A stretch of 60,126 nucleotides of DNA, filler included, from Dirinaria sp. TL-2023a (GCA_051941275.1; 2 parts of 2 records of this genome joined end to end with filler, not necessarily neighbours in it), one strand, 5' to 3'. Counted from the first letter of the whole stretch, positions 30,033-60,126 are shown. Made by a program: numbers and translations. The notes: generated by a model from the letters alone, not told the origin.

Positions 30033-30132
30033 NNNNNNNNNNNNNNNNNNNNNNNNNNNNNNNNNNNNNNNNNNNNTTAATTAATTAANNNNNNNNNNNN
30101 NNNNNNNNNNNNNNNNNNNNNNNNNNNNNNNN
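30033..30132. other. Artificial assembly linker / contig join
   Basis: 44 N + TTAATTAATTAA (30077-30088, stops in all six frames) + 44 N = 100 bp. Confidence 0.95.
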
Positions 30133-36066: not shown

Positions 36067-38205
36067 CTACCAAAGCTTCACATAGCTCAAGAATCGTCGC
36101 CAGCCGGGCTGTCGGTAATACTCATCCAATTGCTGGATATCTTCCGTGGTGAGCTTTCTCCGGCCCGTCAAACAATCAGCCGTCTCTGGGTTGCGCCAGG
36201 GGGTCCGGAATACGAGCTTGTAAGCAATGGTTAACGAGACGATTAAGATGATACCGATGGTGTACTGGAAAAAGTTTGACGCCGTGGTGCCGGACTTGCC
36301 CTATTCGTGTCCCTACGTCAGTTGATAAAACAAAGGAGATAATTGTTCAGCATTGGTCAAGACCGAGGAACCCGTAGTGAGCCGCAATAAGAGGTATGTG
36401 GTTCATAAGCATTCGGGACTCACCGGAGGCTTGGCGCCCACGTAGATGCAGGAAACCAAGAGAAGCGTGGATATAGTCATGAGCCATGCAGGCGCAAGAG
36501 GCCAATAACTAGACTTCCAAGCATACAGATTCGAAAACAGCTTGTCGTTTTGCGCCGCAAGAACCTTGTGGAAACGCCAAGAAGTGAACGCAACGATCAT
36601 CCAGTTGACAAAGAACGAGGCACTCGTAATCGAGACGAACCACGACAGTGCAGTCGTGCCACCGGCTGAAGCGCAGTGTCAGTGCTACCAAACTCCACAG
36701 GGTTTTGAGGCTGGCGAGAAGATATTGGGCTACTCACCAGACAAATTGATATATGTCAGAACAATCGCCGTGAAGCAAGTTACAAGCAGTGACCGTACCG
36801 GCCGTCCTCTACGATCGACCTGCGCGACCCATTGCGGAACAAGCTTTTGGTTGCCCATGGTCCTCAGAATCCTGGAAGCCAGATAGATCGATTCCGCGGA
36901 AATTGCGAGAATACCGCACATGATGCCGGCATTCAAGATGCTGGATACGTAGGGAATGCTGACCGACTGGATGGATAAGACGAAAGGGGAAGCCGTTACT
37001 CCGGAGCCGCCTAGTAATTGGTCGTTGTTCGAAGGGATGAGTACGGTAATGAAAATGACGCATGTCATGTAAACAAAGATCACTCGATAAGGAACGAGTT
37101 TGGTGGCATGGCCCATCGAAAAACGAGGGTTCTGAGCTTCTCCGCCCATGATTCCGATGAAGATCTGGTCGCCGACTGCCCAAGTCGCGAGTAGGGCTGA
37201 GTTCGCAAAGCCCTTGGAAAGGTCAGCTGCAGGTCGTCGAGCGCAAGTCGGGGCATATCTACGTACTGAAAATCCATTTTTAAAGGCTGGAAAGTCCCTC
37301 CAAGTCGATCCATCATGCACATAGCCCTTTGGCCCTGCGCCGCAAACAATAGCGAGAGAGAGGAGAATGATGAGCATAAAGATGATGATCTTAATCAAGG
37401 AGGTGAAATACTCGAACCACGCAAAAACCGTGTTGGGCATAGTGAACAGAGTACATGTTGTGACCAGAAATATAGTGACTTTTCCCATCGTCAGCATTTC
37501 TTTGACTTCAAGGAACGTCCGCTGGACGAGGAAGTGGCTGCAGGAGTCCAGCCAGACCTCCACCATCGATGCTCAGAACTCGCAAACTTACGAGAAGCAG
37601 CCTTAGGAAAATCTCCATTTGCCCAGAACTGGATGAGAATGTTGAAAAAGGCCGCTTCGGATGCAACTATAGAAGTCCAACCTTGATCAAAGTTAATTAC
37701 AAACCATGGATAGTACGGACGGGCTTCTTACCCAGCCATTCGGCAAAGCCAGCGCCAAATGCCAATGCGGGATCAACCCATCGGTCTGCATAGTCGATAT
37801 AGTTACCAGAGGTTGGAAAGGCAATGGTCATTTCGGAGAGAGACTGCAGAACAGCCCAGACGCATGTGCAGACCAGGAAGTAAGCAATGACCATGTTGCC
37901 TGGACCACCAGACGCTAATGCGGCACCAGTTCCAATAAACAGCCCTGAGCCTATGTTGGAACCAAGTGAGATAATCTGTCATTGACCCTGTCAGTAGGCA
38001 GTCGTACTTGGGAAAAGCGGCCTCATTCATCGCATACGTGGACTTGATGTGGGGTGAAGGAGCGATGGAACTGTCCATTCGTCGTGTCTACCATTTCGAT
38101 CACATCTCCTATGCTAGCACTTCTAATAGCGTTGAGATCGAGCTCCCCTTTCTCGCCATCTTTGGACACGCTGGTGTCGGAACCGGCGAACTGTTTCTCT
38201 GCCAT
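36067..38205 (-). CDS. Amino acid permease (APC superfamily, YAT family), multi-exon
   Basis: FHRSFTPHQVHIISLGSNIGSGLFIGTG...GGPG, LSEMTIAFPTSGNYIDYADRWVDPALAFGAG, GEAQNPR, ASPFV, VDRRGRP. Last exon ends RFLSYVKLW* at 36067. Confidence 0.92.
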
Positions 38206-39083: not shown

Positions 39084-39151
39084 CGGTTACATTGCCGACA
39101 CCCCGCACCGGAACACGACCAGACGGTCTATGGGTTTCGGCAAGCGTCCCG
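39084..39151. promoter_or_regulatory. Two CGG-N8-CCG putative Zn2Cys6 sites in the permease/P5CDH divergent promoter
   Basis: CGGttacattgCCG at 39084-39097 and CGGcaagcgtcCCG at 39138-39151. Confidence 0.65.
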
Positions 39152-39324
39152 AGGCTCAACCGATCCATATTCCGAATCAAAGTCTGCCACGCGTTGTAGA
39201 GTTTTCTCTCTCATAATGCTCCTCTGATAGCGCGTCAAGATGCTGCTCTCCGCCGATTTTCTTCAGCAGATAAAACCAAAGCACACACTCCGCCGACGTA
39301 CAGCCAGTGTGGAAGGAGGAAGGC

Positions 39325-41129
39325 ATGAAACCGTTCACTGGCCTTTACGCGTCTGCGATTCCGCGCAACGTCCATGTTCAGTCGCCAGTTCGCAACTTCA
39401 GAGCACTTGATGTCCCACGGCGTAGAATTGCAACGGGCGGGCACTTTGTAGTGCCAAAACCATTCAATGAGCCGAATGTAAGCATTCGTCTAGCAAAAAT
39501 GAGTACGGATCGCTTATTCGTATCCAGTTTGATTATGTGAAGGATTCACCGGAGCGACTGAAACTGGTCACGGCACTGAAGGATCTGAGGTCAAGATTAC
39601 CTGTGCAGGTTCCAGCCAGGGGTGGAGTTCCCAAGTCAGAGAAACAGGACAATGCACAGACCGTCTCCATGTCAATGCCTTCCGAACACGGCAGCACTTT
39701 CGCTCAGTACGGCGACGCCTCAGAGAGCGACGTTTCAGCCGCCATTGAATCCGCACTGAGCGCCAGGTCAGCATGGCAGGACATGCCCTTTACCGACCGC
39801 GCCGCCATCTTCCTCCGAGCCGCCGAGTTGGTCTCCGGCAAGTATCGCTACGAGCTCATGGCAGCGACGATGCTTGGTCAGGGCAAAAACGCATGGCAGG
39901 CTGAGATCGATGCCGCGGCGGAGCTGGCGGACTTCTTCCGCTTCAACGTCGGTTTCGCCCAAGAGATCTACGATAAGCAGCCTGCCATCAACTCTCCAGG
40001 GCACCACGGTCGAACCGACTGGCGGCCACTGGAAGGGTTTGTGTACGCAGTCTCGCCCTTCAATTTCACGGCGATCGGTGGCAACCTGATATCTGCTCCT
40101 GCACTGATGGGCAACGTGGTCGTGTGGAAACCATCGGCCATGTCCGTCTATCCCAGTTACTTGGTGCATAAGATCCTGCTCGAGGCCGGGCTTCCGCCAG
40201 GCGTTATTCAGCTGGTCAATGGCGATCCCGAGCTTGTCACGAGGAAGGTGTTTGAGCACAGGGAATTCTCGGCTCTCAACTTCATCGGATCCTCCGACGT
40301 ATTTCGATCACTCTTCGGGAAAATAGCCGAAGGCGTTGTCAGCAAAAAGTATCGCGACTTCCCCAGAATGGTGGGTGAGACGTCCGGGAAGAACTTCCAC
40401 TTGGTTCATCCCTCTGCCGATATCGGAAACGCGGCAAGACATACCATTCGCGCTTCCTTCGAGTACTCAGGGCAGAAATGCTCCGCTTGCTCGAGAATAT
40501 ACATCCCACAGAGTCAGGCGACTGCTTTCCTTGAGGCCATGAAGCATGAACTCCGTGCTGTCAAGGTCGGCCCCCCCGAAGACTTTGAGAACTTTCTTGG
40601 ACCGGTCATCAACCGTGCAGCTTTCGATAAGATCACCAAGGCAATCGACTCTGCCAACCAAGACAAACAACTTGAGAGGGTGATTGGGGGCACATATGAC
40701 GGGAGCAAAGGCCATTTCATCGACCCTACCATTTACGTCTCCAAAACACCCAACCACGAGCTATTTGACCGAGAACTCTTTGGGCCCGTACTCGTAGCAC
40801 ATGTTTATGCCGACACCGAGTTCGACAATGTCCTAGAAGTCATCGACAGGCAAGGGGGTAACTTCGCTCTCACGGGAGCGATATTTGCCAACGACCAGAT
40901 CGCCATCCGCAAGGCCGAGAATCGACTTCGCTGGGCCGCCGGCAACTTTTATGTCAATTGCAAGACAACAGGGGCTGTTATCGGGCAGCAATCCTTCGGG
41001 GGTTCTCGGGCAAGCGGCACCAATGATAAAGCTGGTAGCGTCAATTTGTTGATGCGTTTTACGGCACCAAGGACTTTGAAGGAGGAATACAACAAATTGG
41101 ACGATGTCATGTATCCTAGCAATCTTTGA
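39325..41129 (+). CDS. PUT2: Delta-1-pyrroline-5-carboxylate dehydrogenase (ALDH4 / Put2 / PrnC family)
   Basis: Arg/Ser-rich presequence-like exon 1, intron about 39478-39527. Motifs NEP, ATMLGQGKNAWQAEIDAAAE, RPLEGFVYAVSPFNFTAIG, GETSGKNFH, FEYSGQKCSA and QQSFGGSRASGTNDK. May be a paralogue of the housekeeping gene. Confidence 0.95.
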
Positions 41130-42146
41130 GCGAATATCATCCGTGGTGCTCGGAGAAAAGTAGCCGTCAGTGAGTGGTTTATACAGAAATACCGAGAATA
41201 CCCAGTCATATCTGCTTTAGGAGAAATTGCTTTATCTTAGACCAGGGGGATATAACAAACACTATCGTACTTGTCTATGTTCGGCGTGGTACTTCGAGAC
41301 GTAGCTGACGAAGCTCAGATGCCTTCCCCTTTTTTTTTGTGTCTATTATTGTGAAAGATGAATTGCAGCGTCAAGCGTGCAATGGCTGTGACATGTCGAG
41401 AAAATGCATCGCTGCAAAGCGATTGCAAATTGAAAGCTCATTGCTTCAAGAAGTCGGACTGAATGATTGACCGAATGTTGCTACTAAAGTATTCGTGCAT
41501 CTCTAAACATCAACCTTGACGAGTATTCTAAACCCCCCCGGATCATCTTCGAGCGCTTGAGAAACGATCGCTATGAGACAATGTCCTACGTGGATCAAGA
41601 CGAAGGACCGAGTCGTGCTAATGCCGAATCTTGAATCGGCGCGCCTTCCAGTTCAAGGAGCAACACACAACCGCAAAGACTCGTAAGGAGACCCCGTAGA
41701 AACTTCACCGTCAACGCTGCGATCCAGGAGGGAAGGAACTCGGAAAAGACGAGGCCACTCGGACTTCGAAGCAAGGAGGAGCTTTCAAGCCTGACGTGAT
41801 GCAAAGTCTGTGTCCAAGCAGATTGTCAAGTACCGCCGTCCTATTCTTCGTAGCCAACGAGCACATCTCAGCTCAAAGCATTCACCTTTGTAGAAGATAT
41901 TTCTCGAATGCATTTGCAGCACACAATTTACAGTAGTCATACCTTATACAAGGCTGAGCAGTTATGACTTAGGACTGATGGCCGCGCGCTAAGCCGCTAA
42001 TAGAATTCATCTTGTCCCGAGGTTATGCCGGAAACGCGACCAGCACGTATCTTACGTAAGATTACCCGATCAGGTGACATCAACACAGACACAAAGTCCT
42101 TCCAGATGTATCTTACCTTAGCTAAGGCAGGCGAGGACTCCTTAGC

Positions 42147-42163
42147 TTTCGGCAAGCTTCCCG
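42147..42163. promoter_or_regulatory. CGG-N8-CCG site upstream of P5C reductase
   Basis: TTTCGGCAAGCTTCCCG, 16/17 identical to TTTCGGCAAGCGTCCCG at 39135-39151. Confidence 0.7.
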
Positions 42164-42302
42164 GTGATACATACAGTACCTTAAGGTAGTAGTGGTGGCG
42201 GTCTCAATTTCGAATTCGTCTCAATAATAATAATGAGCAGGAACTTGTCCATACCCAACTACAGCCTCCTCGTGTTGGCAGCATAAATCAGTCTTTGGTC
42301 AG

Positions 42303-43222
42303 ATGGAGTGTCCGTGGCAGAAAATTCATATCGCTGTCCTGGGATGCGGTGAAGATCCTGTGCAAATCGACATAGGCAAGGCGCTGATGTTGGCCCAGGT
42401 TTCATGGGAACCGCCATCCTGAAGGGACTTTTGACGAAGACCAAAAACGGTAGTACACCCTCGGTCGAATACACAGCTTGGGTTCGGTCTCGAACATCAT
42501 TAGAGCGACTTCACAACGCGCTGGACGACGATCGAAATCAGGTCAACTGTGTGGGTGGGGGAGATGTCGTGGAGAGTATCAGGCCGGCAGATATCGTTAT
42601 CCTCGGCGTTCCTCCGGGAGAACTCAATGATGTCTTCGGAACTGTAGGATTGGCTGATGCGCTGCGGGGGAAAGTCATCGTTAGCCTCCTAGCAGGTGTT
42701 TCCTACCAACAGTTGGCGACCGTCTTGCAAGCCGACACGAAGGTCGATTCAGATTATCACGTGTTGCGGGTCATCCCAAGCATCGGGGCGAAGATCAACG
42801 ATTCGGTGACGCTGATCGCAGAGACGGTAAATGCAGGTCAGGAGCAACAGAAGGTTGTGACTTGGATGTTTGAGCAATTGGGCCAACTGCACTGGCTCCC
42901 TGAGTCACTCATGGACACGGCAACTGCTGCCGGGGCAGCATGTAATGCGCTGACCATGGTAGCTGTCGACGCCATAGTCGATGCCAGCGTTGCTGAAGGA
43001 ATGCCACGTTGGGCAGCTATGAAGCTGGCTGCCGCCTCCTTGCGCAGCTCCTCAGGGCTACTGCTGACCGGCGGCATGTCACCAGAATCTCTAAAGGAGT
43101 CTATGTCCGTGCCTAAGGGTATAACCATCAATTCGGTGCTGGAGCTTGAGCGGGGACATGCGCGATCGACTATTTCCGACGCTGTCCGGCACGCTATACA
43201 GTACGCTAGAAAGATGGCCTAA
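42303..43222 (+). CDS. Pyrroline-5-carboxylate reductase-like protein (divergent ProC/Pro3 family)
   Basis: Exon 1 MECPWQKIHIAVLGC spliced to GFMGTAIL gives the Rossmann GxGxxG. Also ADIVILGVPP, VSLLAGV, ESLMDTATA, DASVAEGMPR and PESLKESMSVPKGIT. Confidence 0.88.
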
Positions 43223-43682
43223 GTACCTTATCACTGATATATGAGCTTATACGGTTTGAATACTCCTGACACTTCTGTTATGTATGTTGACGTATTCCCG
43301 CAGCATGGATCGAGATACAGATATGATTTAGACACCGAGTAAGGTTCCCCAAAGCTTACATATTCGCTACTCTTGTCTAGCCGGAGATCATTAGACTACC
43401 CCGCAAGCCTACGATCGAGATGATAAGCCGCCCTCCACCACGGCAGAGCTGGAAAGCTATGCGTAACGGGAATGGCAGCTCTTCATAACTATCTTTGAAG
43501 CGACTCCGTCATTGATCACCCATATTTCCGACAACTGCAAACGGATGAGATTATCTGAGTGCTCATCATGTTGCCTTGCGAGGTGGCCAATAAATATAAT
43601 TGGAAGGTCTCAAAGATAGCCTGTTCGCGTCAGAGATGTCGGAAAATCGCTTCAGCGCTGAGTTCAAGCCTGTAGTAGTATT

Positions 43683-43696
43683 CGGCTTCCTTTCCG
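43683..43696. promoter_or_regulatory. CGG-N8-CCG site upstream of proline dehydrogenase
   Basis: tCGGcttcctttCCGa. Confidence 0.6.
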
Positions 43697-44089
43697 ACAC
43701 ATCTAAGCCGTCATTGGTATTAGCCCTAATACCATGAGAGAGCCAGACGTTTGGGTTAGAAAGCCTTCACGGTAATGAGAATGCCTCAGAATTGGGTTGC
43801 CCGAAAGTCCACAACCATCTTCCTTATCCAAACAATCCATCCCCTTTCTGGGTTACGGGGCTGAGGCCGTAATGCGGGGCTGGATGACCAGCTACCCCTT
43901 TTGACGCAATACAGTGCTGGAACCATCGCCGAGCGCTGTACTGCACCGCTAGCAGCTGTAGGCACGTGTGGCTGTTGCAGCTTCCAGCTAAAAGCTTGCA
44001 TTGAAAACTTCGATGATAAAGTATCATGCTCGGTTGGCAGCTACCCTCGAGTGAATATCTCATATGATATATCGAGCCTTCCCGAACCC

Positions 44090-45641
44090 ATGAAGCATCT
44101 CGTTGCTAAACATTCTCTTGCGACCTCAATGCCTGTCACTCCGCCGGCAAGGTGCCCCCAGTATCTGCAATCCCGCTTTTCATTTCATCTCGCACATTCT
44201 CCTACGAGGTGGCATTCTACGTTTGCAAGAGACTCCTCCAATGATGCATCGTTGACAAAAAAGAGATTTGCAGTCTTTCCAGACCGCTCCGAGTTGAGGG
44301 CAGCAGAGCCTCTAGCATTGGCTCGTCTTCCTACGGCAAGCGTCTTTAGAAGCTTGTTACTCGGTGCTTTCTTTTCGTCATCCCTCCTGTTCACTCCCGG
44401 ATTTGCGTTTTTGAAGAAGATCTCCAACTCCCCCTCGCGCATGCTGAACCCGGACAAGAACCCGATTTTGAGAGCTATCGTCAAGCCACTGGTGTATGAT
44501 CAATTTTGCGCTGGGCGAAACCGGTCGGAAATCCAAGAGAAGATTTCGCAAATTAAGTCTCTGGGCTTTTCGGGGGTCATTCTTTGCTACGGTAAGGAGA
44601 TCCAGATTCAGAAGTACTATCAGCCCGAAGTAGATTGGCTCAGCGAGTCGCACCAAGGCTTTGATCAGGGGCTAGATTTATGGAAACAAGGTAACCTGGA
44701 AACGCTGGATATGATCGGTGATGGGGACTACTTAGGTATCAAGTACGATGCTCCAACGTTCTCTCGAAGGGACCTCACTGATCTCTGTGAGCAGATATAC
44801 TGGAGCCGGGAAGTCAATAACAGATGACCTTCTACGCGGCAACGCTCCACCCAGGGCCTTCGTGGATGCTATGGACGCCATCTTACAGAGAGCGATGGCC
44901 CAGAACTGTAGGATCTGGATCGACGCCGAACAGCAAGTGCTTCAGCATTCCATCGATCGCTGGACGATCGATCTCATGCGCAAGTACAACCGAAGTGGGA
45001 AAGTCGTACTATACAACACTCTCCAGGCCTACCTGAAATCGTCGCGAAAAAAGCTTGAGCAGCAGCTTCAACTCGCTCACGAAGAAGGCTGGACACTGGC
45101 GATCAAGCTTGTTCGGGGAGCCTACATCGAGAACGATGTTCGAGAACGCATACACGACACCAAAGCACAGACGGACGAGTGCTACAACAGCATCGTGCAG
45201 GACCTCCTCAGTGGCAATGTGAAAGGCATTGCGGAGCAAGATTTCCCCAAGATGCAGCTGTTCCTCGCTGGCCACAATCCGATCAGCATCTCGAAGGCAA
45301 GTGATCTGGTACGTGAACTTCAATTGCAGGGCAAGTTGAAAACGCTGCCTGAGTTCGGTCAGCTTCAGGGGATGGCGGATCAGCTTGGCTGCGAATTGTT
45401 GCAACATGGTGAAGACACAGCACGGGTCTTTGCGTCGAAGGGGCTCCCGGTCGCGATCCCGCGAGTGTACAAGTGTTTGACTTGGGGAAGCATACAAGAA
45501 TGCATGCAGTATCTCGTGAGAAGGGCTGTGGAGAACCGTGGCGGCACAGGTGCGATCAAGGATGGTATGCCTGCACTCGCAAGGGAGTTGAGACGAAGAA
45601 CGATCGACGCGTTAATGGGACGGCGCCGAACGTTGGGCTGA
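44090..45641 (+). CDS. PUT1: Proline dehydrogenase family flavoenzyme (Put1/PrnD-like; possible hydroxyproline dehydrogenase)
   Basis: YDQFCAG, GVILCYGKE, IKYTGAG (across an intron at about 44743-44794), IWIDAEQ, NTLQAYLK, KLVRGAY, AGHN, FGQLQGMAD, VYKCLTWG and YLVRRAVEN. The N-terminus resembles a mitochondrial presequence. Confidence 0.93.
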
Positions 45642-45886
45642 TTACTGTTACTACTCTGGCGATCAGGGGGGACTACAATATAGCGCGCTGCAGGACTGCT
45701 TATTTCTTTACACATACTTCGAACCTCCAGATCTACTGCTTGCTCTGTTTTTCCGTTTCGAGGATAATTTACGCACCCGTCCTCTGCGAGGAATCAGCTA
45801 GGCAGGGCTGAGTGCGAGAACACAGAGCATTGGAAATCTCAATCGAGCAAAGTTTTCCTCATCCGCTCCGACATCAGAAGCGGTCT

Positions 45887-45932
45887 CGGGAAGGTCGCCG
45901 AGCCCTCCCTTGAACTATCGGTTGTGCCTCCG
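45887..45932. promoter_or_regulatory. Two CGG-N8-CCG sites upstream of the aldolase
   Basis: tCGGgaaggtcgCCGa at 45887-45900 and tCGGttgtgcctCCGa at 45919-45932. Confidence 0.7.
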
Positions 45933-46065
45933 AGAGGACATCTCTGAAGGCACTGACTAAAGACTGACTAATCCATGCTCTCAGAGACCATTTTACTTCT
46001 ATCGTCATCAAACCTCCGAAGGCAATTTAGAGAACACGGATCAGCGGACGAAATCTGCATTCGCG

Positions 46066-47088
46066 ATGGTCTCAGAGATCGAATCCAACGACAATGCTTC
46101 TGCGAAGCCACAGAAACACAACTACCCAGTCCCAGAGCCAGGCTGTTACGTCCCCGCCGTCACCTTCTTCGACCCAGAAACAGATCAGCTAGAACTCGCA
46201 TCACAGAAAAAATACTACGCGTACCTCGCCAGCACAGGCCTCAAAGGCCTAGTAATCCTAGGCACCAACGCGGAAACCTTCCTCTTAAATCGAGAAGAGC
46301 GCAAAACGCTGCTAGAAGCCGCCCGGCAGGCCGTGCCAACGGGATATCCCATCATAGCGGGTGTAAGCGGGCACTCGACCTCTCAAGCACTGGAATACAT
46401 CTCGGACGCGTACTCCGCAGGCGCCAACTACGTGCTCCTCCTCCCCTGCGCCTACTTCGGGAAACAAACCACGCCCTCAGTCGTAAAGCGGTTCTACGCC
46501 CAAGTAGCAACCCAATCCCCCCTCCCAATCATAATCTACAACTTCCCGGCCGTGTGCAACGGGCTCGATCTCGACTCGGGGATAATCACGGAACTGGCGA
46601 CGCAGCATCCGAACATCGTCGGCGTGAAACTCACCTGCGGGTCCGTGGCCAAGGTCGCGCGGCTGGCGGCCGTGTTTTCGCCCGCGCGCTTCGCTGTCTT
46701 CGGCGGCCAGGCCGATTTCTTGCTCGGCGCCCTCGCGGTCGGTGGGGGCGGCTGCATCGCTGCGTTCGCTAATGTGTTCCCTAATGCCGTGGCGAGAGTG
46801 TTTGAGCTCTGGAGTGAAGGTAGACAGCAAGAGGCGCTTGCGCTGCAGAGGGTTCTTTCCTTGGCGGAAGCGCCGACTAAGGCTGGCATTGCGAGTACTA
46901 AGTATGCGGCTGCTTTGATGACGGCGCCGAGGGCGGGAATTGGGGATGCGGCGCGGTTGCTGAGGCCACGCAGGCCGTATGAGGAGCCGGATGAGGGGGC
47001 GAAGGCGAAGATCGAAGAGACTATGGCTCCGTTGAAGGGGCTTGAGGATGGTGGACTTGCGAAAGGAGAGGTTGTGAATGGTCACTAA
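46066..47088 (+). CDS. DapA/NanA-family class I aldolase (4-hydroxy-2-oxoglutarate aldolase / GaaC-like), intronless
   Basis: GCYVPAVTFF, GLVILGTNAE, EER, PIIAGVSGHST, IIIYNFP (catalytic Tyr) and NIVGVKLTCG (Schiff-base Lys). Confidence 0.92.
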   Translation: MVSEIESNDNASAKPQKHNYPVPEPGCYVPAVTFFDPETDQLELASQKKYYAYLASTGLKGLVILGTNAETFLLNREERKTLLEAARQAVPTGYPIIAGVSGHSTSQALEYISDAYSAGANYVLLLPCAYFGKQTTPSVVKRFYAQVATQSPLPIIIYNFPAVCNGLDLDSGIITELATQHPNIVGVKLTCGSVAKVARLAAVFSPARFAVFGGQADFLLGALAVGGGGCIAAFANVFPNAVARVFELWSEGRQQEALALQRVLSLAEAPTKAGIASTKYAAALMTAPRAGIGDAARLLRPRRPYEEPDEGAKAKIEETMAPLKGLEDGGLAKGEVVNGH

Positions 47089-48517
47089 CTTCGCATATCG
47101 AAAGCATATTTTGAGGGAAATGGGGGATAGATGGTCTTTTTTTTTTTTTTAATAGATCTGATTGGGATCAGATCTTGAACATATATTGAGCAATGACGTG
47201 ATACTCGAGGCCGCCGTAAAAGAAACGTCTCTTGACAAGAGCAAATCCAGCTTTACCTCGAAATTTCTCACTGAATAGTTCAGATCTAAGAGTCTAACAC
47301 GTCTTTCCTTCCTATTTAAGTATTGTAGATTGCGCACAGCATGTGTATATCACACAAAGAAAACATAGCATTTTATAATTAATATATCTAACTCAATCCA
47401 ATCATGCACTCGAAATAAAACTTATCGTCTCCCTTTCGCAAGGTCTTTTTTTGTACCGACTTCTACAGACGGACGATTCTAAACCGCGATTAGAGTGTCA
47501 ATGAGCTGGATATGAATCGAGTCTTGCGTGAATGGTGAAAGTTAACTAAGATGAAAATATGAAGTCGATTTTTGGATCAGTATGATACGAGCTGGGCTGG
47601 CGTGATGTTCGCGATAAATGGGTTGTAGACTCTTGGGGTAGCTGGTAGGGGATATGTTGGCTCGTGGGCATGTGTGTTGCGAGATGTTGGGGTGTTGAAA
47701 TTTTTTGATTTGCTATGTACGCAGTCATCAGGTAAACTTTTTTTTTTGTCTTTTTTTTCTTTTTGGAGAATCTTACTGCAGTTATACTACCCTTGTCAGT
47801 GCCAACAATTCATTTTCATCTATTGAACTAGGTAACCCAATTGGAGTCGCATATCGATCTATTCTTCATACTTCTATGTGTGTGTTTGGTTATTTACATG
47901 GCAACCTTTATGTGCGGAGGTCTATACCCCGATTGGGCCTAGCGCCCTCTCTGCCGGGTATGCCCTATGCCGCTCACTTTCCAACATCATCTATCAATAT
48001 CTTCTGATCTTTGTCTGCCTCAGAATTAAATGGATTCGTTTCTTCCTAGCGAAAGAAAGAAGTTCAAGCCAATAACGCCCTGACGAAAGGACGATGAACT
48101 AAATATTTATTAAAAGTCTCACTGTCAAATTAATAATCCGTTGAGTGATTGAAAGACGCTAGAAAAGAAATATGACTGCAGTCTTGATTCTGAAGCATTG
48201 ATTTGAGGAAGAAGACATTGATAGACGATAGTAGATTTTGGTGAACTGCGCATGAAGAGGAGGGAAGAATTTTGAAATGTCAAGTTTTCGCAACACATGC
48301 ACACGCCAAATTCTAGCCCGCTGGCAGTGTAGCATATGCGCATACTTCCGATCCATATTTTTCGAGTGAAACCGCCTTGCGAGTCGCAAGCCATCACATC
48401 AATCTTACACAATGCGGGATGAGAAGAGTCGGTATTTCCTCGAGCAGGTCGCGACGGCTCTATGAACAGAACAGGAATAAAAGAGCTTTGACATAGAGCA
48501 GTCATTCGACGGTAGGC

Positions 48518-49490
48518 TCAGGTGTTCTGGTCGATACTTGCAGTGCGTGCTCGGTCGAAGTCGTTCATCATATTTGCTCTCATTTTATGGTTGACCGTAG
48601 CCCCTAACCCGAACGCCGGAAGGACCCTGCACATCCTCGCAAGACTTGTGGCTGGCCAGTCCAGCCGCACTTTCCTCAGACGGTCCCTGGCCGGTGTAGG
48701 GCTGTTTCGGTTGTACAAATCCAAGCCAAGCAAATGTAGCGGCGTATTCAGAATCTGGATCAGGGCAGGAGTGGCAAACTGGGCCACCGAACGGCGGCTG
48801 AAATGATCTTCCACGGACTGTGGGAGCATTGACGCCACTTTTGGTGGCAGGTTAAACGACGCGAAAATGGTGAGCGAGTCGCGTAGCGCTAGCAATGCGT
48901 AGCTGGCTGGCGGGAGAGGGCGAGGGGCGATCGTTCCGAACATTTTGGTGAACTGGCTGTCCTTGTACAAAGCCAGATTCAAATTGACGAAACTGATCGC
49001 GCCGAATTTGGCGAGGCCACTGGTCGTTGTGCTTGCCGGCTGATTCTGCGCAGTGGAGCTCATCGTGTCTATGGCGTTCGCAGTAAGATATGTGCTGCTG
49101 TAGAGTAGCATCATGATAGCCGACGGACGAGCAAAGAGGAAATGGTGTGGGCGGAGAAGCAGACTTTGAAGCGAGCTTTTTACTGAGCCCATGAATGAAG
49201 TGCGACCGGAGACTCTTTCAACGACTGCCCTTTAGCATGAATCAGTAAGATTTTTCCGCCTCATATCCTTTCTCGTGAGTCGTGACGGATTGCTCTCAAT
49301 AGAAAGCATACTTATCTATCACTGTGACAATGGGTGCCACCAGGCCGGCTGCTATGGCTGCGCTGCTGGCATCTATCGTCAATCTAGCTCCAACATCTCC
49401 CAAGTACCAACAGCTATCTCGTTCTTTCCCTCTTGTCACATGGCTCGCATACTCAGGAACTTGTATCGAGTTGCCGGAGTCTGCCGCCAT
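48518..49490 (-). CDS. Uncharacterised fungal membrane protein, 2 exons (possible mitochondrial transporter-like)
   Basis: Exon 1 ...DASSAAIAAGLVAPIVTVIDK splices in frame (GT-AG) to AVVERVSG...YSSTYLTANAID...YKDSQF...RDSLTIFASFNLP...TPLHLLGLDLYNR...ARMCRVLPAFGLG. Several amphipathic/hydrophobic helices. Confidence 0.8.
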
Positions 49491-49761
49491 AGAAAGCGTC
49501 AACGTCTTGTTTCCAACGCCTCAATCAAGTGCCATAAAGGAATTGTTTTGGTTCGAACGGCCAAGCATACAACTTCGACGTCGTGACTCGCTTGCTAGGC
49601 GATACAAAGTTGCTCAATGGCCGAGACATGTCTGTCCTCGATAGTTCGGACACTGCCGCAGTACGTTGCCGCGTGGTGCGAGGCTGCGTCAAGAGAAAAG
49701 TTCGAATCTGAAAGGAGAGAAGACCAGTCCCGATACCTTAGGCTTGCAGTGTTGGTGCTTT

Positions 49762-49916
49762 CGGATGAAATCCCGATGCATCCGATAGCCCGATAATCAT
49801 ACAGTGATTGGAGCCGGCGGACGATCCGACGTCGGATTTCCCGCCGTCCGACTATGATTCGGACCGACCAAACCCTATTTCAACCCTAAATACCAATTCC
49901 CCCGGAACTTCTGCCG
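49762..49916. promoter_or_regulatory. Four CGG-N8-CCG sites in the divergent promoter of the membrane protein and the FAD oxidase
   Basis: Sites at 49762-49775, 49815-49828, 49833-49846 and 49903-49916. Confidence 0.7.
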
Positions 49917-50245
49917 AGCCTTATCGCCGCTGACTGCCGACCTGCATCCCGATGAATCTTCTTTCTCACCAACTTTTCGTATCAAAGTTCGTAGTCGAGT
50001 CGGGGTGCAATATTATCCTGTCATGTGCGTGAATCTAGCTCCTTTGCACACGGGAGTCGCCGCCGGTCGTTGCGCGGTGAGCAATGCGAAGAAAGCTAAG
50101 CTCCCACAAGCTTTGCCAGTAGGTGAAGATGAAGGCAAATTCGATCCGAGTTCTGCGTGACAGCGCGTAAGACCTAAGCTTTTTTCCACTCTAGTATACT
50201 TCATATAGATCGGCATTGAGCACTGGAAGACGTCAATTCATCAAG

Positions 50246-51748
50246 ATGGCCCGTAATGATTCTCCTGTGCTCATTCTTGGTGGCGGCGCTTGGGGCCTAT
50301 CCACCGCTTTACACATGCTCAATGCAGGCTACAATGATATTAGGGTCGTTGAGCGTGCTGAACAAATACCTTCGAGATACTCTGGTGCCTGGGATCTCAA
50401 CAAGATCGTTCGCGCTGAATACGAGGATCCCTTTTACACAGAATTAGCTCTGGTAAGGTCACTGTTGGCAGTTTTGGTGGAATGGCGCCCGAAGAGGTCT
50501 TTACTTCAGCTCTCCTGTTCATGTGTCAGAGAAAAGTCTCCAATTCAGAAGTTTCATGGACCCACCACTGACGGCATGCTTGAGCGAGAATAGGACGCCA
50601 TGGAAGGCTGGAAGACTCCTCTCTTCGGGCCGTATTTTCATCAGACCGGCTACGTGGTCGCTGTAACCGACAGGGCTCCTGAAAAGGCAGTCCATCACCT
50701 AGAGGAAGCTCTTTCCTCGATATCCTCGCATCCCAGGTTCGCTTCTGAAATCAGACGGCTGCACGGCGGCAAAGACTTCAAGGACTATACGTGGCAGTAT
50801 AGCGGGCCCTTGACCGGGTTCAAAGGGTACATCAATCGAATTGCAGGCTATGCGCATTCTGCAGATACGCTTAGGGGTATCTGGGAGCATTGTGCAAGCA
50901 GGGGCGTGAGGTTTATCATGGGGGAGTCAGCTGGCAAGGCTGTCGAGCTTCTCTATGCTGACGCGAAAGTCTTGGCTTCGTCTTCTACCGGCACGGGCCC
51001 TCAGAGAAGCACTGGGGAAGGTCGATGCATTGGTGTCAAGACAGCCGATGGCAAGCGTCACTTGGCGGATTTGACGATTTGCGCTTTGGGCGCCTATGCT
51101 GCCTCACTGATTCCAAGCCTAGGGAATTTTAGTGTGGCGCGATGTTGGTCTGTAGCACACGTGCAGCTGACTCAGGCAGAGACAAATTTCCTCCGTGGCA
51201 TCCCTACAACCAGCGTTCGAGACCTAGGATTCTTCTTTGAGCCAGATCCCAAAACCCAGCTGTTCAAGTTATGTCCACTTGGCGCCGGATTCACCAACAC
51301 CAACAATGATGGCATATCTTTGCCGCCTGGGGATCTCCTCCCACCTCCGCAAGATTACATTCCCCTTGAGGACGAGCAAAAGCTTAGGCAGCTATTGCGC
51401 GAGACGTTTCCGTGGATGGCCGAAAGACCCTTCGTGGAACAGAAGCTCTGTTGGTTCGCAGACACAGCAGACTCGGAATACTGCATCGATTTTGTTCCGA
51501 ACACGAACAACTCGCTTGTCGTGCTTTCTGGCGACTCGGGGCATGGCTTCAAGATGATGCCGAGCTTTGGAAAGTGGGTGGTGGAACTATTGAAAAATAA
51601 CGAGCAAAGGCTGCCGAGATGGCAATGGCGCAATACAGATCTAAGGGGGCAAGACTGGAGCACGTCTGTCAGTTGGAGGATCGGAGAGTCGCGCGAGATC
51701 CGTGACATGATTGATGAAAAGTCGAAAATCATCAAAGCCAGACTGTGA
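50246..51748 (+). CDS. FAD-dependent amine oxidase, sarcosine / L-pipecolate / fructosyl-amino-acid oxidase family, with PTS1
   Basis: VLILGGGAWGLSTA, DLNKIVRAEY, intron 50453-50593, FHQTGY, GFFFEP, KLCWFADT (covalent-FAD Cys region), SGDSGHGFK; C-terminal -ARL. Confidence 0.92.
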
Positions 51749-52375
51749 TTTTGAGGGGAAAAGTGGACTTAAAATGACCAGTGGTCGCTAAATCCTTTGA
51801 TAAGCCTTCTCTTACGTGAATTGATGTTCGGTATCAATTCTAATAGAAAAGTACTGATAGTCATCGTGGCTTTTCTTGAAGGAGTGTTGAGTGGTATCGT
51901 CCGCGTTATATCTAACGGAGTCCGTTTTAGACCACGCTCCAAACTGTGCTTCCCCGAGCCTTCTTGTCATTCTTCACCAAGAAGCCGGCTAGCCAAGGGA
52001 CACGGGTGTGTGTAAATAAACTTGGTTCTCCCAAGCAATATGAGCAGCATCACCACAGACAGTCTATCCCTCATTTTCATTGATGACAGACTTTCTTTGC
52101 GGTAAGTCGAGAACCATAGTTGATCAGGGGGATCAGTTCTTGCTGGCCTCGAGGATGGATGTAGAACTGTAACGTTTAATCCTCACCTGCAACGGCTTTC
52201 GGAACCATAATTACGTACTCCGGCATTTCGTATCCTCACTCGCCAGAGACATTTCTCAGAAGCGTCGGGAAAGACTGCTGGGCCATTCCCTACATGTAAT
52301 TGAAAATCCTGTAGAAGTTGTCGTTTTACCTCCTAAAAAGCTTCGCTCGCGGCGTCTTTACCATCATTCACTTAT

Positions 52376-52432
52376 CTTAGGTAAATACTTAGGTAAGAAC
52401 TTAGGTAAGAGCTTAGGTAATTACTTAGGTAA
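52376..52432. repeat. 12-bp period tandem repeat, 5 x CTTAGGTAA(N3), in the regulator promoter
   Basis: CTTAGGTAA starts at 52376, 52388, 52400, 52412 and 52424. Confidence 0.85.
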
Positions 52433-52670
52433 TGAGTATCGGCCGGAAATCTGCCAAAGCGCTAACCCTAAAAGGATGCGATGCGGGGGTTCCATCGGCC
52501 TTTAATCGATGCGATCCATCACTATCTTTCGTATCATACATTACTTCTCATACTGGCTGCAGCCGAAAACGACTCTCAGACTAGTATACACGTCCAAAAG
52601 GGTCGAGTAATGGCTCAAATCTCCCGTATGTCGGCAGTGCAGTAGAAAACTGAACCCTATCAGACGCCGC

Positions 52671-55292
52671 ATGGACAACCTGGGCTCGCAGCAGGACCGA
52701 ATCAGGAAGCGGGCATCCAACGCGTACGCAGGCAGATCCTGTATGCCCGTGCCATTATTACTCACATTACTCATCTGCTTGTTCGTCTAGTTGCAGCCGT
52801 TGCCGCCAACAGAAGATCAAATGCTCTGGCGCCGCGCCATGTGGATCGTGTATCAAAAAGAACTTGCCTTGCAATTTCGACAACGAGCATCAAAAGGTCC
52901 TCGTCACAAAAGGGTGAGTAAGCAGACTCTTGAAGCTATGCATTGACGAAATACTGTTCTAAACCCCGCCGTGAAGATTCCTTGATTCTCTCGAAAGACA
53001 AGCCGGGGTCTCCCACCATAATAATAATAGTAGCCGCGGCTCTAGACAAGACCGCATTGACCCCGCGCTCTCTACAGACGAGAATCCAGACCCTTACGTA
53101 CAAGGAGGCAAGTTTTCAAAAGATCCGAAATTGCAATTCCCACTGACCATCTGAAAGAGTTTGATGTCGGACAGCCTCATAGACTACCGACACCCGCGAA
53201 TGGATTGGGCTCTAATGAATACGCACACTCAGACTCCGAGATTGATTCTCGTAGAGAAAGCACTGCAATAGACGAAGATCTCACGAATCCCTTGGTATCC
53301 GGGAAATCCGTTTATGTAGCCGACAGTACGGGCCAGCCAAGTGAGTCCTGCTGTGATCAGTTACTGCAGATGCCATCAGGGCCTGACAAAAAGCCTTGTA
53401 CAGCTTACCTTGGGACATCTTCGAATTGGTCTTTTGGCAGGCGGATACTGAGTAATGCCCATGAGCGGCTGTACGGCGTTCCGCTGCCCGCAGCGAGCCA
53501 TCTCTTCCAGGGACCAGCGTACGAGCTTGGTTGGGATGGCCGACGAGGCACAGCGGAGCTCGACGACGCCATCCTGCCGACTGCAGATTTTGCTTTGTTT
53601 CTGATAAATGCGGTGAAATTTCATTGCGGCCAACTGTTCCATTTGTTCGACGAACAGGAATTCATGCGCAATTTCAGCACTTACCACGATCAAGGACATA
53701 GAGACAACTGTTCGGAGCTATGGCACATCCACTACCTTCTAATCCTTGCCCTGGGCAAAGCTTTCATTGTTCGAGTGGGCCAAAACCGTCGACCGCCAGG
53801 CGCCAATCTATTTGTTCAAGCGATGCGATTACTTCCAGACACCACCTACCTTTGCAACGACCCGATTCCATCAATTGAGATACTGTGCTGCGCAGCGCTC
53901 TATTTCCAGTGCTCAGATATGCGTGATCCCGCGTATAGTCTTGTGAGCTCTGTGATCGCTGGCACCATGACTCGCTGATCGCTCACTTCTGCGGCAGATT
54001 GGACAAGCCTTACGAATGGCGGTAGTGCATGGCATGCACACGGACATTCAAAGTCGTCATCATTCGGATTCTGTGACTGAGAGGTGCCGCGAGATCTGGT
54101 GGACCGTTTATTTGCTGGACTGTCATCTGTCGTCGTTGATGGGCGTGCCGCTCGCCCTGGCGGAACAGGACATTAGTGCGCAGCTTCCATCCTTTGCCGG
54201 TTTCTCATCAAAATCTCTGGCTTTGTCAATCCATGTCAGGCTTGCAAAGACTATGACGATGATACTTCGAAGTAAGTCCTGGATTCCCTGTTGCTTCTAG
54301 CGTGATATTCTGACGATACCCGATCCAAGCCGTCTACGGTGAAGAGGGTCGTACGAATAATAAATTTTTAGCCAGCATCAAAAACGCGCTAAAATCCCTG
54401 GCGAGCATTAATGATGAGCGAAACAGCGGTTTCCCTCTAAGCCTGAAGAACCCCTCAAGTAGTATTTCGAGGCTCTCGGCCTATCTCCACTTGTTCCACC
54501 ATCAAGTTCGTGATTCACTGCGATTGCGTTCATCTCGAGCCTGACGCACTAATGTGGGCCCTGTAGTGTATCATCCTCACCGTCAGACCCTTGTTGTATG
54601 CACTGTGGCAAAAGAAGACCGAGACCTCAGCTCCCATGCGCGTTAGCTCAGCAGGAAGTGTGCGATCCCTATTACGAGTTTGCGTCGCTTCGGCACACGA
54701 AACATTGAAAATCCTCGATGCCCTCCAAGCTCAAAGCCTTCTTGGTAAGTATCAGTGAATTAGGGCTGCATGTATTCTTGCATAAGCCTTTCTGGTTCCC
54801 TTTCGTTAACTTCCATGGTCAGAAAGCTTCATACCTTTTGATCTCGACTCTACATGGTTCTGCGCGGTGGTGCTTCTGGTCACCAAGATGGTCGACGATA
54901 CTCTGCTGCGGAAACATGGGTCGTGGCTGCAAAAAACACATGCGATCCTGGATGAAATGGTGTCTAGGGGTAATCTGGTTGCAAGACTTCGCAAAGCAGA
55001 GCTGGAAAAGCTCGAGGAGACATTGACAAGACTGCACACCACTGGTACCACTTCAATCATTACCCATAGCTCGGTCATGCAGACCTTCGACCAAGACCCC
55101 GCGAGCGAAGAGAGCGTTCGGGATGTCGGTTCCAGTCATTCTCAAATGCAGTATGAACCCTTGCACGATTGGAACTCTGAGGAAGGCTTGAGCGGGGATC
55201 AACTGATCGCTGTCGCGGACTCCTTGGACTTTGCCAGCTTGGACTGGATGTCGGCTGCTCCCCTGGGTCAGCTGGACGGCTGTTTGTATTAA
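52671..55292 (+). CDS. Zn(II)2Cys6 transcription factor, Put3/PrnA-like, multi-exon
   Basis: RKRASNA|CSRCRQQKIKCSGAAPCGSCIKKNLPC binuclear cluster. Middle region YLGTSSNWSF, LPTADFALFLINAVKFHCGQLFHLFDE, RRPPG, IGQALRMA..GMHT, ERCREIWWTVYLLD..LSSLMGVP and FIPFDL. Some exon boundaries are uncertain. Confidence 0.92.
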
Positions 55293-58907: not shown

Positions 58908-60126
58908 ATGACGCTGCTCGACGATATGATCCGCCTGGACTGGCATCCCAGAGCAGCAAGCTCTCTGATACTGGCAGTCGCTCTCCCGTTCATTGTAACT
59001 TGGCTCATCAGCTCGTTCCAGTCATGGCGTGCGATGACTGCTGCCGCGAAAGCCTCTCCAGGGGACAAACGTCCGCCCACACTTCCCTCGTCCATCCCCA
59101 TGGTTGGGCATGTCGTCAATTTTATGCGAGACGGACACGGATTTCTGTCCAGTGCAGTGTAAGTCCAGGAGGACGACTGGTTCTCCTTAAGGCGCAGAGA
59201 ACAGCGGCTCTGACAAGCTTCGCAGAAAATACTTTGGTCGCGAAATCCCCGTCCGCGTGAATTTGGCCACATTCCCCACGTGCATTGTTTCCGGTCCGGA
59301 GTCGGTCGCGGCGTTTCTCAAAGACCCCACCCGCGGGCTTATCCAGACGAACCGAAGCCTCAAGATCATGGAACATGCGTTTGGCTGTCCACACGAATTT
59401 GTGGACGAATTCCGGCCGCGCCCCGATGGTGAACTGGAGCAACAAATCCACCACGCCCTCCAGTCTATGCTTTCCGGTGCCCGCCTGGAGATCCTTGCGG
59501 GGCGGTACCAAGAAGCTGTAGTCAATCAGGTTTTCGAGGGCGACGCCAAAATGGGTGACGAGTGGACCGTGCTGCCGGATCTGTGTGCTTTCGTGGAAAA
59601 GAACATCTTCGAAGCGGCGACTCGCGCCGTATTCGGACCGTATGTCGTCGAGCTGAACCCCACCGTCTCGGCTGATTTCTGGAACTTCAACCGGCACGTC
59701 AAGTCGATGTTCATGGGCGTTCCTCAGTGGTTGAACCCGGCCGCACGGCGTGCGAGGGACAAGATGACCGGGAACGTCAAGCGGTGGCAACGCCATGCGC
59801 AGGAGCATTGCAACATCGACGACATCCCGGACGATGTCGAGTGGGAGCCGTACTACGGAAGCAAATCGACCCGTGTTCGACAGAAGCTCCTGACGAAACG
59901 AGGGATCATGGATGAATCGGCTCGTGCGGCGGAGAACCTCGCATTTATGTGGGCGTGAGTGACCCTAGCGAACTGAAACTGGAGAAACCAAACTAACACC
60001 CAGCCCAGAACAAACGCCAACTCCGTGCCCGCAGCATGCTGGTTCCTGCTCGAAACGCTGCACGACCGCACCCTCTTCCCCCGCGTCCGCGAACGTCTTC
60101 AAGCAGCCTCAATCCCCACCACCACC
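58908..60126 (+). CDS. Cytochrome P450 (CYP7-like fungal type), 5' part; runs off the window
   Basis: N-terminal anchor followed by RPPTLPSSIPMVGH, FEAATRAVFG, DFWNFN, WEPYYGS and an I-helix AFMWA|TNANSVPAACW. GT-AG introns. The heme-Cys motif lies beyond the window. Confidence 0.85.

Follow-up and report, generated by a model that had tools for sequence, protein, structure and literature searches.

Gene content of the cluster and distribution of the CGG-N8-CCG sites

The 60,126-bp stretch of Dirinaria sp. TL-2023a DNA analysed here (GCA_051941275.1; "the window") carries a gene cluster with an amino-acid permease, a pyrroline-5-carboxylate (P5C) dehydrogenase (P5CDH), a P5C-reductase-like protein, a proline dehydrogenase (PRODH), a DHDPS-family aldolase, a protein previously described as an "orphan", a flavin adenine dinucleotide (FAD) oxidase and a Zn2Cys6 transcription factor. 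All five structural-gene promoter regions of this cluster (5/5) carry the inverted repeat CGG-N8-CCG, with 11 sites altogether and one to four per promoter, and the motif recurs in the promoters of orthologous clusters. The gene starts were placed by eye from open reading frames (ORFs) and homologues, which gave the following gene models.

36067 to 38205, minus strand: amino-acid permease (PF00324), with introns; both the ATG (~38205) and the end (~36067) are approximate
39325 to 41129, plus strand: P5CDH (Pfam Aldedh), with one short intron near the 5' end; best solved relative 4oe4 (mitochondrial P5CDH), E 4.7e-167
42303 to 43222, plus strand: P5C-reductase-like protein with a P5CR_dimer and an F420_oxidored NADP domain, distant from solved P5C reductases (E 4.5e-19)
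~44090 to 45641, plus strand: PRODH (PF01619, Pro_dh)
46066 to 47088, plus strand: DHDPS-family aldolase, single exon; best solved relative 3qfe (E 2.8e-124), then human mitochondrial 4-hydroxy-2-oxoglutarate aldolase (HOGA; E 1.1e-29)
48518 to 49487, minus strand: "orphan", in two exons (~49487-49311 and 49231-48521), no Pfam family
50246 to 51748, plus strand: FAD oxidase of the sarcosine/fructosyl-amine oxidase family (PF01266); best solved relatives fructosyl-amine oxidases, E 5.6e-40
~52671 to 55292, plus strand: Zn2Cys6 transcription factor, with an intron at ~52724-52790, the zinc cluster at 52792-52872 and Fungal_trans at ~53971-54297; the 3' end is approximate

The start of PRODH is approximate because its N-terminal ~75 residues are not conserved in the orthologous locus L005, and PRODH gave no match to solved structures at E <= 1e-5. 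According to Pfam, the genes flanking the cluster are unrelated to it (Dcp2 and a Rad5-like gene upstream, an MBOAT_2 protein downstream). Two runs of 44 N, at 30033-30076 and 30089-30132, are masked sequence or assembly gaps and lie between the Rad5-like gene and the region 5' of the cluster.

A pattern search of the window located 21 CGG-N8-CCG sites, against 8.95 +/- 2.61 in 100 shuffles, none of which (0/100) reached 21. Of the 21, 16 fall within 39084-50816 and five in the remaining 40.8 kb, four of these five being within long ORFs with Pfam support. The perfect palindrome TCGG-N8-CCGA is present in seven copies in the 60 kb, all seven within the cluster. The 11 sites in the promoter regions are given below.

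Site 1, 39084 to 39097: cCGGttacattgCCGa, in the divergent permease/P5CDH promoter, ~234 bp from the P5CDH ATG
Site 2, 39138 to 39151: perfect TCGG-N8-CCGA, ~180 bp 5' of the P5CDH ATG
Site 3, 42150 to 42163: TCGGcaagcttcCCGg, ~146 bp 5' of the ATG of the P5C-reductase-like gene
Site 4, 43683 to 43696: perfect TCGG-N8-CCGA, ~400 bp 5' of the PRODH ATG
Site 5, 43856 to 43869: aCGGggctgaggCCGt, ~227 bp 5' of the PRODH ATG; newly listed here
Site 6, 45887 to 45900: perfect TCGG-N8-CCGA, ~172 bp 5' of the aldolase ATG
Site 7, 45919 to 45932: perfect TCGG-N8-CCGA, ~140 bp 5' of the aldolase ATG
Site 8, 49762 to 49775: perfect TCGG-N8-CCGA, in the divergent promoter of the carrier-like ("orphan") gene and the oxidase
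Site 9, 49815 to 49828: cCGGcggacgatCCGa, in the same divergent promoter
Site 10, 49833 to 49846: TCGGatttcccgCCGt, in the same divergent promoter, 4 bp past site 9
Site 11, 49903 to 49916: cCGGaacttctgCCGa, ~336 bp 5' of the oxidase ATG

A preliminary description of this DNA had listed ten of these sites (all except site 5), and each of the ten was found at the position it gave; its intergenic count was one short, the site at 43856 having been missed. Recounting its ten sites also returned the same flanks, with T before seven and A after eight, and the near-identical pair it had pointed out, 39138 and 42150, matches at 16 of 17 nucleotides (TTTCGGCAAGC[G/T]TCCCG). The distance from a site to the ATG that it faces is 140-480 bp, and fungal upstream activating sequence (UAS) elements are usually located in this range upstream of the ATG.

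Five more CGG-N8-CCG sites are found inside the coding sequence of the cluster, at 40316, 44451, 45448, 46701 and 50803. The one in the aldolase gene (46701-46714) is a perfect TCGG-N8-CCGA that encodes the conserved residues F-G-G-Q-A-D and recurs in four orthologues (L009 706, L012 2466, L015 560 and L019 104). As it coincides with conserved codons it needs no regulatory explanation, and such a coding coincidence inflates raw genome-wide counts of the motif.

A different sequence, the heptamer TAAGGTA/TACCTTA, is present 16 times in the window, and 8 of these copies fall in intergenic regions of the cluster (38393, 38401, 41940, 42114, 42177-42188, 43224 and 49734), one of them as the palindrome TACCTTAAGGTA, 13 bp past the site at 42150. 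Of the orthologous loci described below, L008 and L015 have a single copy each, and L001, L002, L005, L012 and L019 have none. The heptamer may be a further element restricted to one lineage, or its distribution may be due to chance.

Enrichment and spacer specificity

To the five promoter regions correspond 4,636 bp with the first gene boundaries and 4,341 bp after a first exon of the "orphan" gene was found, and the site counts are the same in both sets. The motif is clearly enriched in them. In 2,000 dinucleotide-preserving shuffles of the 4,636-bp set, CGG-N8-CCG appeared 0.75 times on average and four times at most, and none of the shuffles reached 11 sites at any of the 42 inverted or everted spacing combinations (N0-N20), the highest value being 7. 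At equal base frequencies 1.06 sites would be expected (4,341 x 4^-6), in agreement with the value of about one given previously. The density per kb is 2.53 sites in the five promoter regions, 0.33 in the rest of the cluster and 0.12 outside the cluster, the rest of the window serving as background, and no N8 site occurs in either of two control regions, the convergent 3'-3' spacer at 47089-48124 and the 0.9 kb 5' of the regulator. The CGG and CCG triplets themselves are not over-represented in the promoters (148 in 4,636 bp, ~1 per 63 bp for each triplet), and the likeness among sites stops beyond ~18 nucleotides.

The enrichment is specific for the spacer, since all other inverted and everted spacings from N0 to N20 are represented by 0-4 sites each in the five regions. 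The choice of the spacer in the preliminary description was post hoc; it was removed by a scan of all dyads of two 3-mers separated by N0 to N20 (86,016 combinations), in which a dyad was scored if seen at least 5 times and compared with the 3-mer frequencies of the same promoters. In the window promoters the first rank goes to CGG-N8-CCG and the second to its own extension CGG-N9-CGA (that is, CCGA). Palindromes are counted on both strands in this table, which overstates the p-values, and the ranking is what counts. Within the cluster promoters, a spacer-enrichment check of the kind that had been suggested for the motif favours N8, with 11 sites against 0-4 at other spacers and the first rank among the dyads.

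Recurrence in orthologous loci

When metagenomes were scanned with the aldolase, 19 loci with 53-74% protein identity were obtained. L017 is identical to L005 and L003 has the same matches and sites as L002, and each of these pairs was counted once; L009, L010 and L013 have less than 150 bp upstream and were left out of the analysis. Gene content, mapped by tblastn and Pfam, revealed rearranged clusters with the following orders.

L001: regulator, then aldolase, then reductase-like gene (minus strand)
L005: aminotransferase (minus strand) divergent from the oxidase; PRODH; aldolase; P5CDH (minus strand) divergent from the reductase-like gene; canonical mitochondrial carrier
L008: PRODH, then aldolase, then P5CDH (minus strand)
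L012: P5CDH (minus strand) divergent from the aldolase
L015: aldolase, then PRODH
L019: aldolase, then permease
L002 (8409-19108): aminotransferase (minus strand) divergent from the aldolase, which is followed by a D-2-hydroxyacid dehydrogenase and a DAO-type oxidase, then an MFS transporter (minus strand) and an oxoprolinase

The motif recurs in these clusters. We found 14 N8 sites in 13 intergenic regions of the seven cluster-type loci (8,775 bp, with approximate boundaries), distributed over 10 of the 13 regions, against 0-4 for the other inverted spacers. Shuffles of this orthologous set gave a mean of 1.32, none of the 2,000 reached 14 at any spacing, and CGG-N8-CCG was again the top dyad. 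In L005, all five cluster promoters (5/5) have exactly one site each, and the ~8 kb lying outside the cluster have none. Phylogenetic footprinting had been proposed for the motif, and it succeeds in part: the motif recurs in orthologous, rearranged cluster promoters, and the footprint is not positional, as the aldolase promoter does not align across 8 loci (mean column identity 36%) and three of the loci, treated below, have no N8 site.

The related pair L012/L019 has a homologous promoter that is 81% identical overall, in which both sites keep 12 of 12 triplet bases and 9 of 16 spacer bases. This pattern fits a constraint on the half-sites, and is weak on its own. A pooled logo of 24 sites, or 48 half-sites, has T before CGG in 27 half-sites and G in 2, and leaves the spacer otherwise free. 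An everted CCG-N17-CGG, with 8 occurrences in the orthologous set, was considered as a separate motif and rejected, because it arises partly from the paired sites of L012 and L019 and otherwise has no consistent context.

The linked Zn2Cys6 factor

Exactly one Zn2Cys6 pattern exists in the window, that of the factor at 52671-55292. The first exon and the intron of this gene were identified by visual inspection, and the N-terminus agrees with that of P0001 and P0003, two full-length homologues. Thirty homologues share the conserved DNA-binding region, in which the zinc cluster is followed by a short linker and a helix. Among the 120 matches listed, the named proteins most similar to it belong to Usnea, Teloschistes and Caloplaca (58-71% identical over the exon used as query), and the ~700-residue family, whose members carry PF00172 and PF04082, spans Dothideomycetes, Eurotiomycetes, Sordariomycetes and Leotiomycetes at 40-60%. 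Judged by the best named homologues of the cluster proteins, which include Heterodermia besides these three genera, the DNA probably belongs to a lichen-forming Lecanoromycete. Some homologues carry the automatic name "Proline utilization trans-activator"; for 8 homologues, from Aspergillus and elsewhere, a cluster look-up yielded generic names only.

The linkage of the factor to genes of the cluster is conserved. Four of the 120 matches listed are mis-fused gene models, from Caloplaca, Hortaea and Aureobasidium, that add a DAO, P5CR_dimer or Pro_dh domain; in Hortaea and Aureobasidium the neighbour is PRODH or the reductase-like gene. Pairwise comparison identified the fused parts as orthologues of the window oxidase (62% identity), reductase-like protein (45%) and PRODH (42%), indicating that the factor adjoins cluster genes in other fungal classes too. 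Moreover, the factor orthologue of L001 is located directly 5' of the aldolase, with a perfect TCGG-N8-CCGA between them. Two N8 sites of L001 (3-16 and 103-116) lie 135 and 35 bp before the factor's own ATG (144), have no counterpart in the window, and suggest either autoregulation or a divergent promoter that is truncated at the contig end.

Upstream of the window factor, ~240-300 bp 5' of its ATG, five tandem 12-bp units, each beginning CTTAGGTAA, occupy 52376-52435.

The carrier-like protein of the divergent promoter

The family of the "orphan" is conserved in ascomycetes, with 949 matches at E <= 1e-5 and, among the matches listed, 55-87% identity and no Pfam domain; the homologues from close relatives are 79-87% identical. 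Alignment with homologues revealed an upstream first exon at ~49311-49487 on the minus strand (MAADSG...VTVIDK), missed by simple ORF reading, which moves the start from 49192 to ~49487 and shrinks the divergent promoter shared with the oxidase to ~758 bp. Exon 2 has no Pfam family at E <= 0.01 (Mito_carr, PF00153, was not matched), and its homologues have no precomputed Pfam domain.

An AlphaFold (AF2) model was built from 25 sequences for the full-length homologue P0185, which is 61% identical to the window protein (pLDDT 85.2, pTM 0.79). The top 12 Foldseek hits of this model are all mitochondrial carriers, with a marginal best E of 2.2e-3 and a TM score of ~0.5. VIA-align gave Z 14.1 for UCP1 (240 residues aligned, root-mean-square deviation 5.0), 11.2 and 9.3 for two ciliate carriers, 8.4 for the bovine ADP/ATP carrier (AAC) and 6.7 for the best non-carrier. 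Helical models often reach Z ~13 in VIA-align, and we therefore call the protein carrier-like in fold, not a member of the SLC25 family. By this model it looks like a divergent, mitochondrial-carrier-like fold with six helices and three repeats, and the label "orphan", used in the preliminary description, no longer suits it. The canonical Mito_carr gene of the L005 cluster supports a mitochondrial transport step.

Interpretation of the motif

CGG-N8-CCG, with its extended form TCGG-N8-CCGA, probably represents a set of upstream activating sites through which the cluster is co-regulated, the most likely reader being the linked Zn2Cys6 factor as a homodimer. The factor as the binder, binding as a dimer, the activation of transcription, the inducer and the substrate are what we infer from the sequences. 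One zinc cluster of the homodimer would sit on each CGG half-site, with the linker setting the 8-bp gap, and by way of the one to four sites in each of the five promoter regions the factor would co-induce seven genes. The predicted pathway would lead from uptake to PRODH, P5C dehydrogenase, a transaminase and the HOGA-like aldolase, as a mitochondrial, vertebrate-type degradation of hydroxyproline and proline, and the carrier-fold membrane protein, the amine oxidase and the P5C-reductase-like enzyme would be co-regulated alongside it. The single regulon suggested earlier gains support as a putative one: a spacer-specific motif located in the cluster promoters and recurring in orthologous clusters would tie together the aldolase, the reductase-like enzyme, the "orphan", the oxidase, PRODH and P5CDH.

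Several observations weigh against this interpretation. The permease ATG is ~900 bp from the nearest site, which makes the membership of the permease in the regulon less certain. The 0.9 kb 5' of the factor (51749-52670) contains neither CGG-N8-CCG, as the preliminary description had already reported, nor a one-mismatch TCGG-N8-CCGA. No N8 site was found in the regions examined of L008 (between PRODH and the aldolase, 523 bp), L015 (701 bp) and L002 (292 bp); L008 displays TCGG-N7-CCGA at 625 in place of N8, and the variant cluster of L002 (8409-19108) has no CGG-N8-CCG anywhere. In seven loci with an unclustered aldolase, 8 N9 sites against 3 N8 sites were counted in 4,200 bp upstream, and the N9 sites, several of them GTCGG-N9-CCGA-like, lie at most 600 bp upstream (L007 9778, L014 7141, L011 8842 and 8919, L018 3440, L004 1123); in the related pair L007/L014 the N9 site is conserved and the N8 sites are not. 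These N9 and N7 variants might be due to a paralogous regulator or to a spacing that is not strictly fixed. Furthermore, the promoters cannot be aligned between loci, so that conservation is by presence and not by position, and the boundaries of the promoter regions are approximate in all loci, since the gene starts were set by eye.

The sites could instead be genuine Zn2Cys6-type elements read by a different, unlinked factor, for instance a broader nitrogen- or carbon-responsive reader of CGG-N8-CCG, with the linked factor binding elsewhere or only co-regulating. Zn2Cys6 proteins are numerous in fungi, the region 5' of the linked factor in the window lacks the motif, and L005 bears the motif in all five promoters with no factor homologue within its 20.9 kb. 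The N8 spacing is also documented, in passages of PMC13267753, for ClrB, a regulator of quite different genes, which means that the spacing alone does not identify the binder. We nevertheless consider an unlinked reader unlikely, given the conserved linkage of the factor to cluster genes in L001 and in the fused models of Caloplaca, Hortaea and Aureobasidium, and given that the five sites in the other ~41 kb of the window, four of them in long Pfam-supported ORFs, argue against a broad use of the motif in this sample.

An origin of the clustering by chance, from the base composition of CG-rich promoters or from promoter segments that were once duplicated is already contradicted by the data and has hardly any probability left. 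The spacer was picked after looking, two sites match at 16 of 17 nucleotides, and the coding site at 46701 is explained by its conserved codons, all of which would suit such an origin; on the other side stand the ordinary frequency of the CGG/CCG triplets, the absence of any shuffle with 11 sites at any spacing, and the first rank of the dyad in two independent sequence sets. As to duplication, the likeness between sites ends at ~18 nucleotides and the promoters of different loci do not align. That the palindromes act as RNA or DNA structure, as small hairpins in 5' leaders in which the TCGG/CCGA arms pair as a 4-bp stem at sites that may fall in 5' untranslated regions (e.g. 43856), is extremely improbable, because a 3-4 bp stem with an 8-nucleotide loop is marginal, the sites occur in divergent promoters serving both strands, and constraint is limited to the triplets and the flanking T/A, as in the known logic of Zn2Cys6 half-sites.

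Returning to the linked factor as the reader of the sites, a wider proposal can be made, which we hold to be possible rather than probable: its ~700-residue family, which is found widely in Pezizomycotina and seems not to have been characterised, may be devoted to regulating a mitochondrial, vertebrate-type hydroxyproline pathway of fungi (PRODH, P5CDH, aminotransferase and HOGA-like aldolase) with its own divergent SLC25-like carrier and oxidase/reductase pair, and TCGG-N8-CCGA may be the conserved recognition code of the family. If true, the regulon could be read whole from sequence in lichen-forming and other ascomycetes. If the main interpretation of the motif holds, one 14-bp rule would link eight genes, including the oxidase, the reductase-like enzyme and the carrier-fold protein, into one regulon and would provide a search pattern for unlinked members. 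Part of PMC2526178 describes hydroxyproline as used as a poor nitrogen source for Aspergillus fumigatus, and the motif, if correctly interpreted, would give a handle on the fungal use of hydroxyproline and proline, relevant to growth on hydroxyproline-rich proteins of plants and animals. Genetics is hard in lichen-forming fungi.

Comparison with known systems

UAS elements of the Gal4/Put3/Ppr1 type consist of inverted CGG triplets with a factor-specific spacer, of 11 (Gal4), 10 (Put3) or 6 (Ppr1), and are bound by Zn2Cys6 homodimers. The sites of the window resemble them in having two inverted CGG half-sites at a fixed spacing, a free spacer sequence, several copies upstream of catabolic genes and a Zn2Cys6 gene nearby. 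They differ in their spacer of 8 and in the T preferred before CGG (27/48 half-sites). In the five promoter regions the Put3-type CGG-N10-CCG occurs once, N11 does not occur, and N6 is represented by 2-3 sites according to the boundaries used.

The closest match in core and spacing is the 5'-CGGN8CCG-3' of ClrB (A. nidulans/A. niger) and CLR-2, which is identical to the motif described here. In the portions of PMC13267753 consulted, ClrB of A. nidulans binds CGGN8CCG and loss of either triplet abolishes its binding, and one further mention of CGG-N8-CCG, in the context of GliZ, is found in a section of PMC4006717. The N8 spacing is thus not unprecedented. ClrB controls cellulase and mannanase genes, in contrast to the amino-acid catabolic cluster studied here, and homologues of the linked factor bear automatic names such as "Proline utilization trans-activator" and not ClrB.

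In gene content the cluster is comparable to the prn cluster of A. nidulans (prnA, prnX, prnD, prnB, prnC), which, according to excerpts of PMC5983819, comprises a permease, proline oxidase, P5C dehydrogenase and a pathway-specific Zn2Cys6 activator, together with an extra inducible gene of unknown role. The same excerpts describe PrnA as acting at several sites in bidirectional promoters, at CCGG-N-CCGG and CCGG-6/7N-CCGG, the latter of which necessarily contains CGG-N6/7-CCG. Both clusters combine a permease, proline oxidase/PRODH, P5C dehydrogenase and a Zn2Cys6 gene; ours adds the HOGA-like aldolase, the oxidase, the reductase-like protein and the carrier-fold protein. The sites themselves differ, with T/A flanks here instead of C/G. 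No PrnA-type CCGG-N-CCGG or CCGG-N6/7-CCGG occurs in the cluster, the single CCGG-N1-CCGG of the window being located outside it, at 59291.

The mitochondrial catabolism of 4-hydroxyproline in vertebrates proceeds through PRODH2/HYPDH, ALDH4A1, GOT2 and HOGA1, followed by glyoxylate handling. The window gathers PRODH, P5CDH and a HOGA-like DHDPS-family aldolase, and the orthologous clusters add a class I/II aminotransferase (L005, L002) and a canonical mitochondrial carrier (L005), while the D-2-hydroxyacid dehydrogenase of L002 is suggested to point to glyoxylate handling. A tblastn search with the L005 aminotransferase gave no match in the window at E 1e-4, and none was seen among the cluster ORFs scanned; a housekeeping aminotransferase could serve instead in this fungus. 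The vertebrate route has no enzymes that correspond to the oxidase and the P5C-reductase-like protein. As judged from gene content, the set looks like a vertebrate-type hydroxyproline/proline pathway, the substrate being predicted from the same genes.

The outline of the vertebrate pathway is given in the review PMC8779045, in whose available text "fung" and "yeast" do not occur. In the open-access papers searched, whose silence is not proof of absence, we found no description of a fungal cluster of the hydroxyproline type or of this factor family. That a cluster-linked Zn2Cys6 factor reads spaced CGG triplets is a principle already known, and what our analysis adds, as a well-supported proposal, is a conserved candidate cis-element for an uncharacterised regulator together with its putative regulon.

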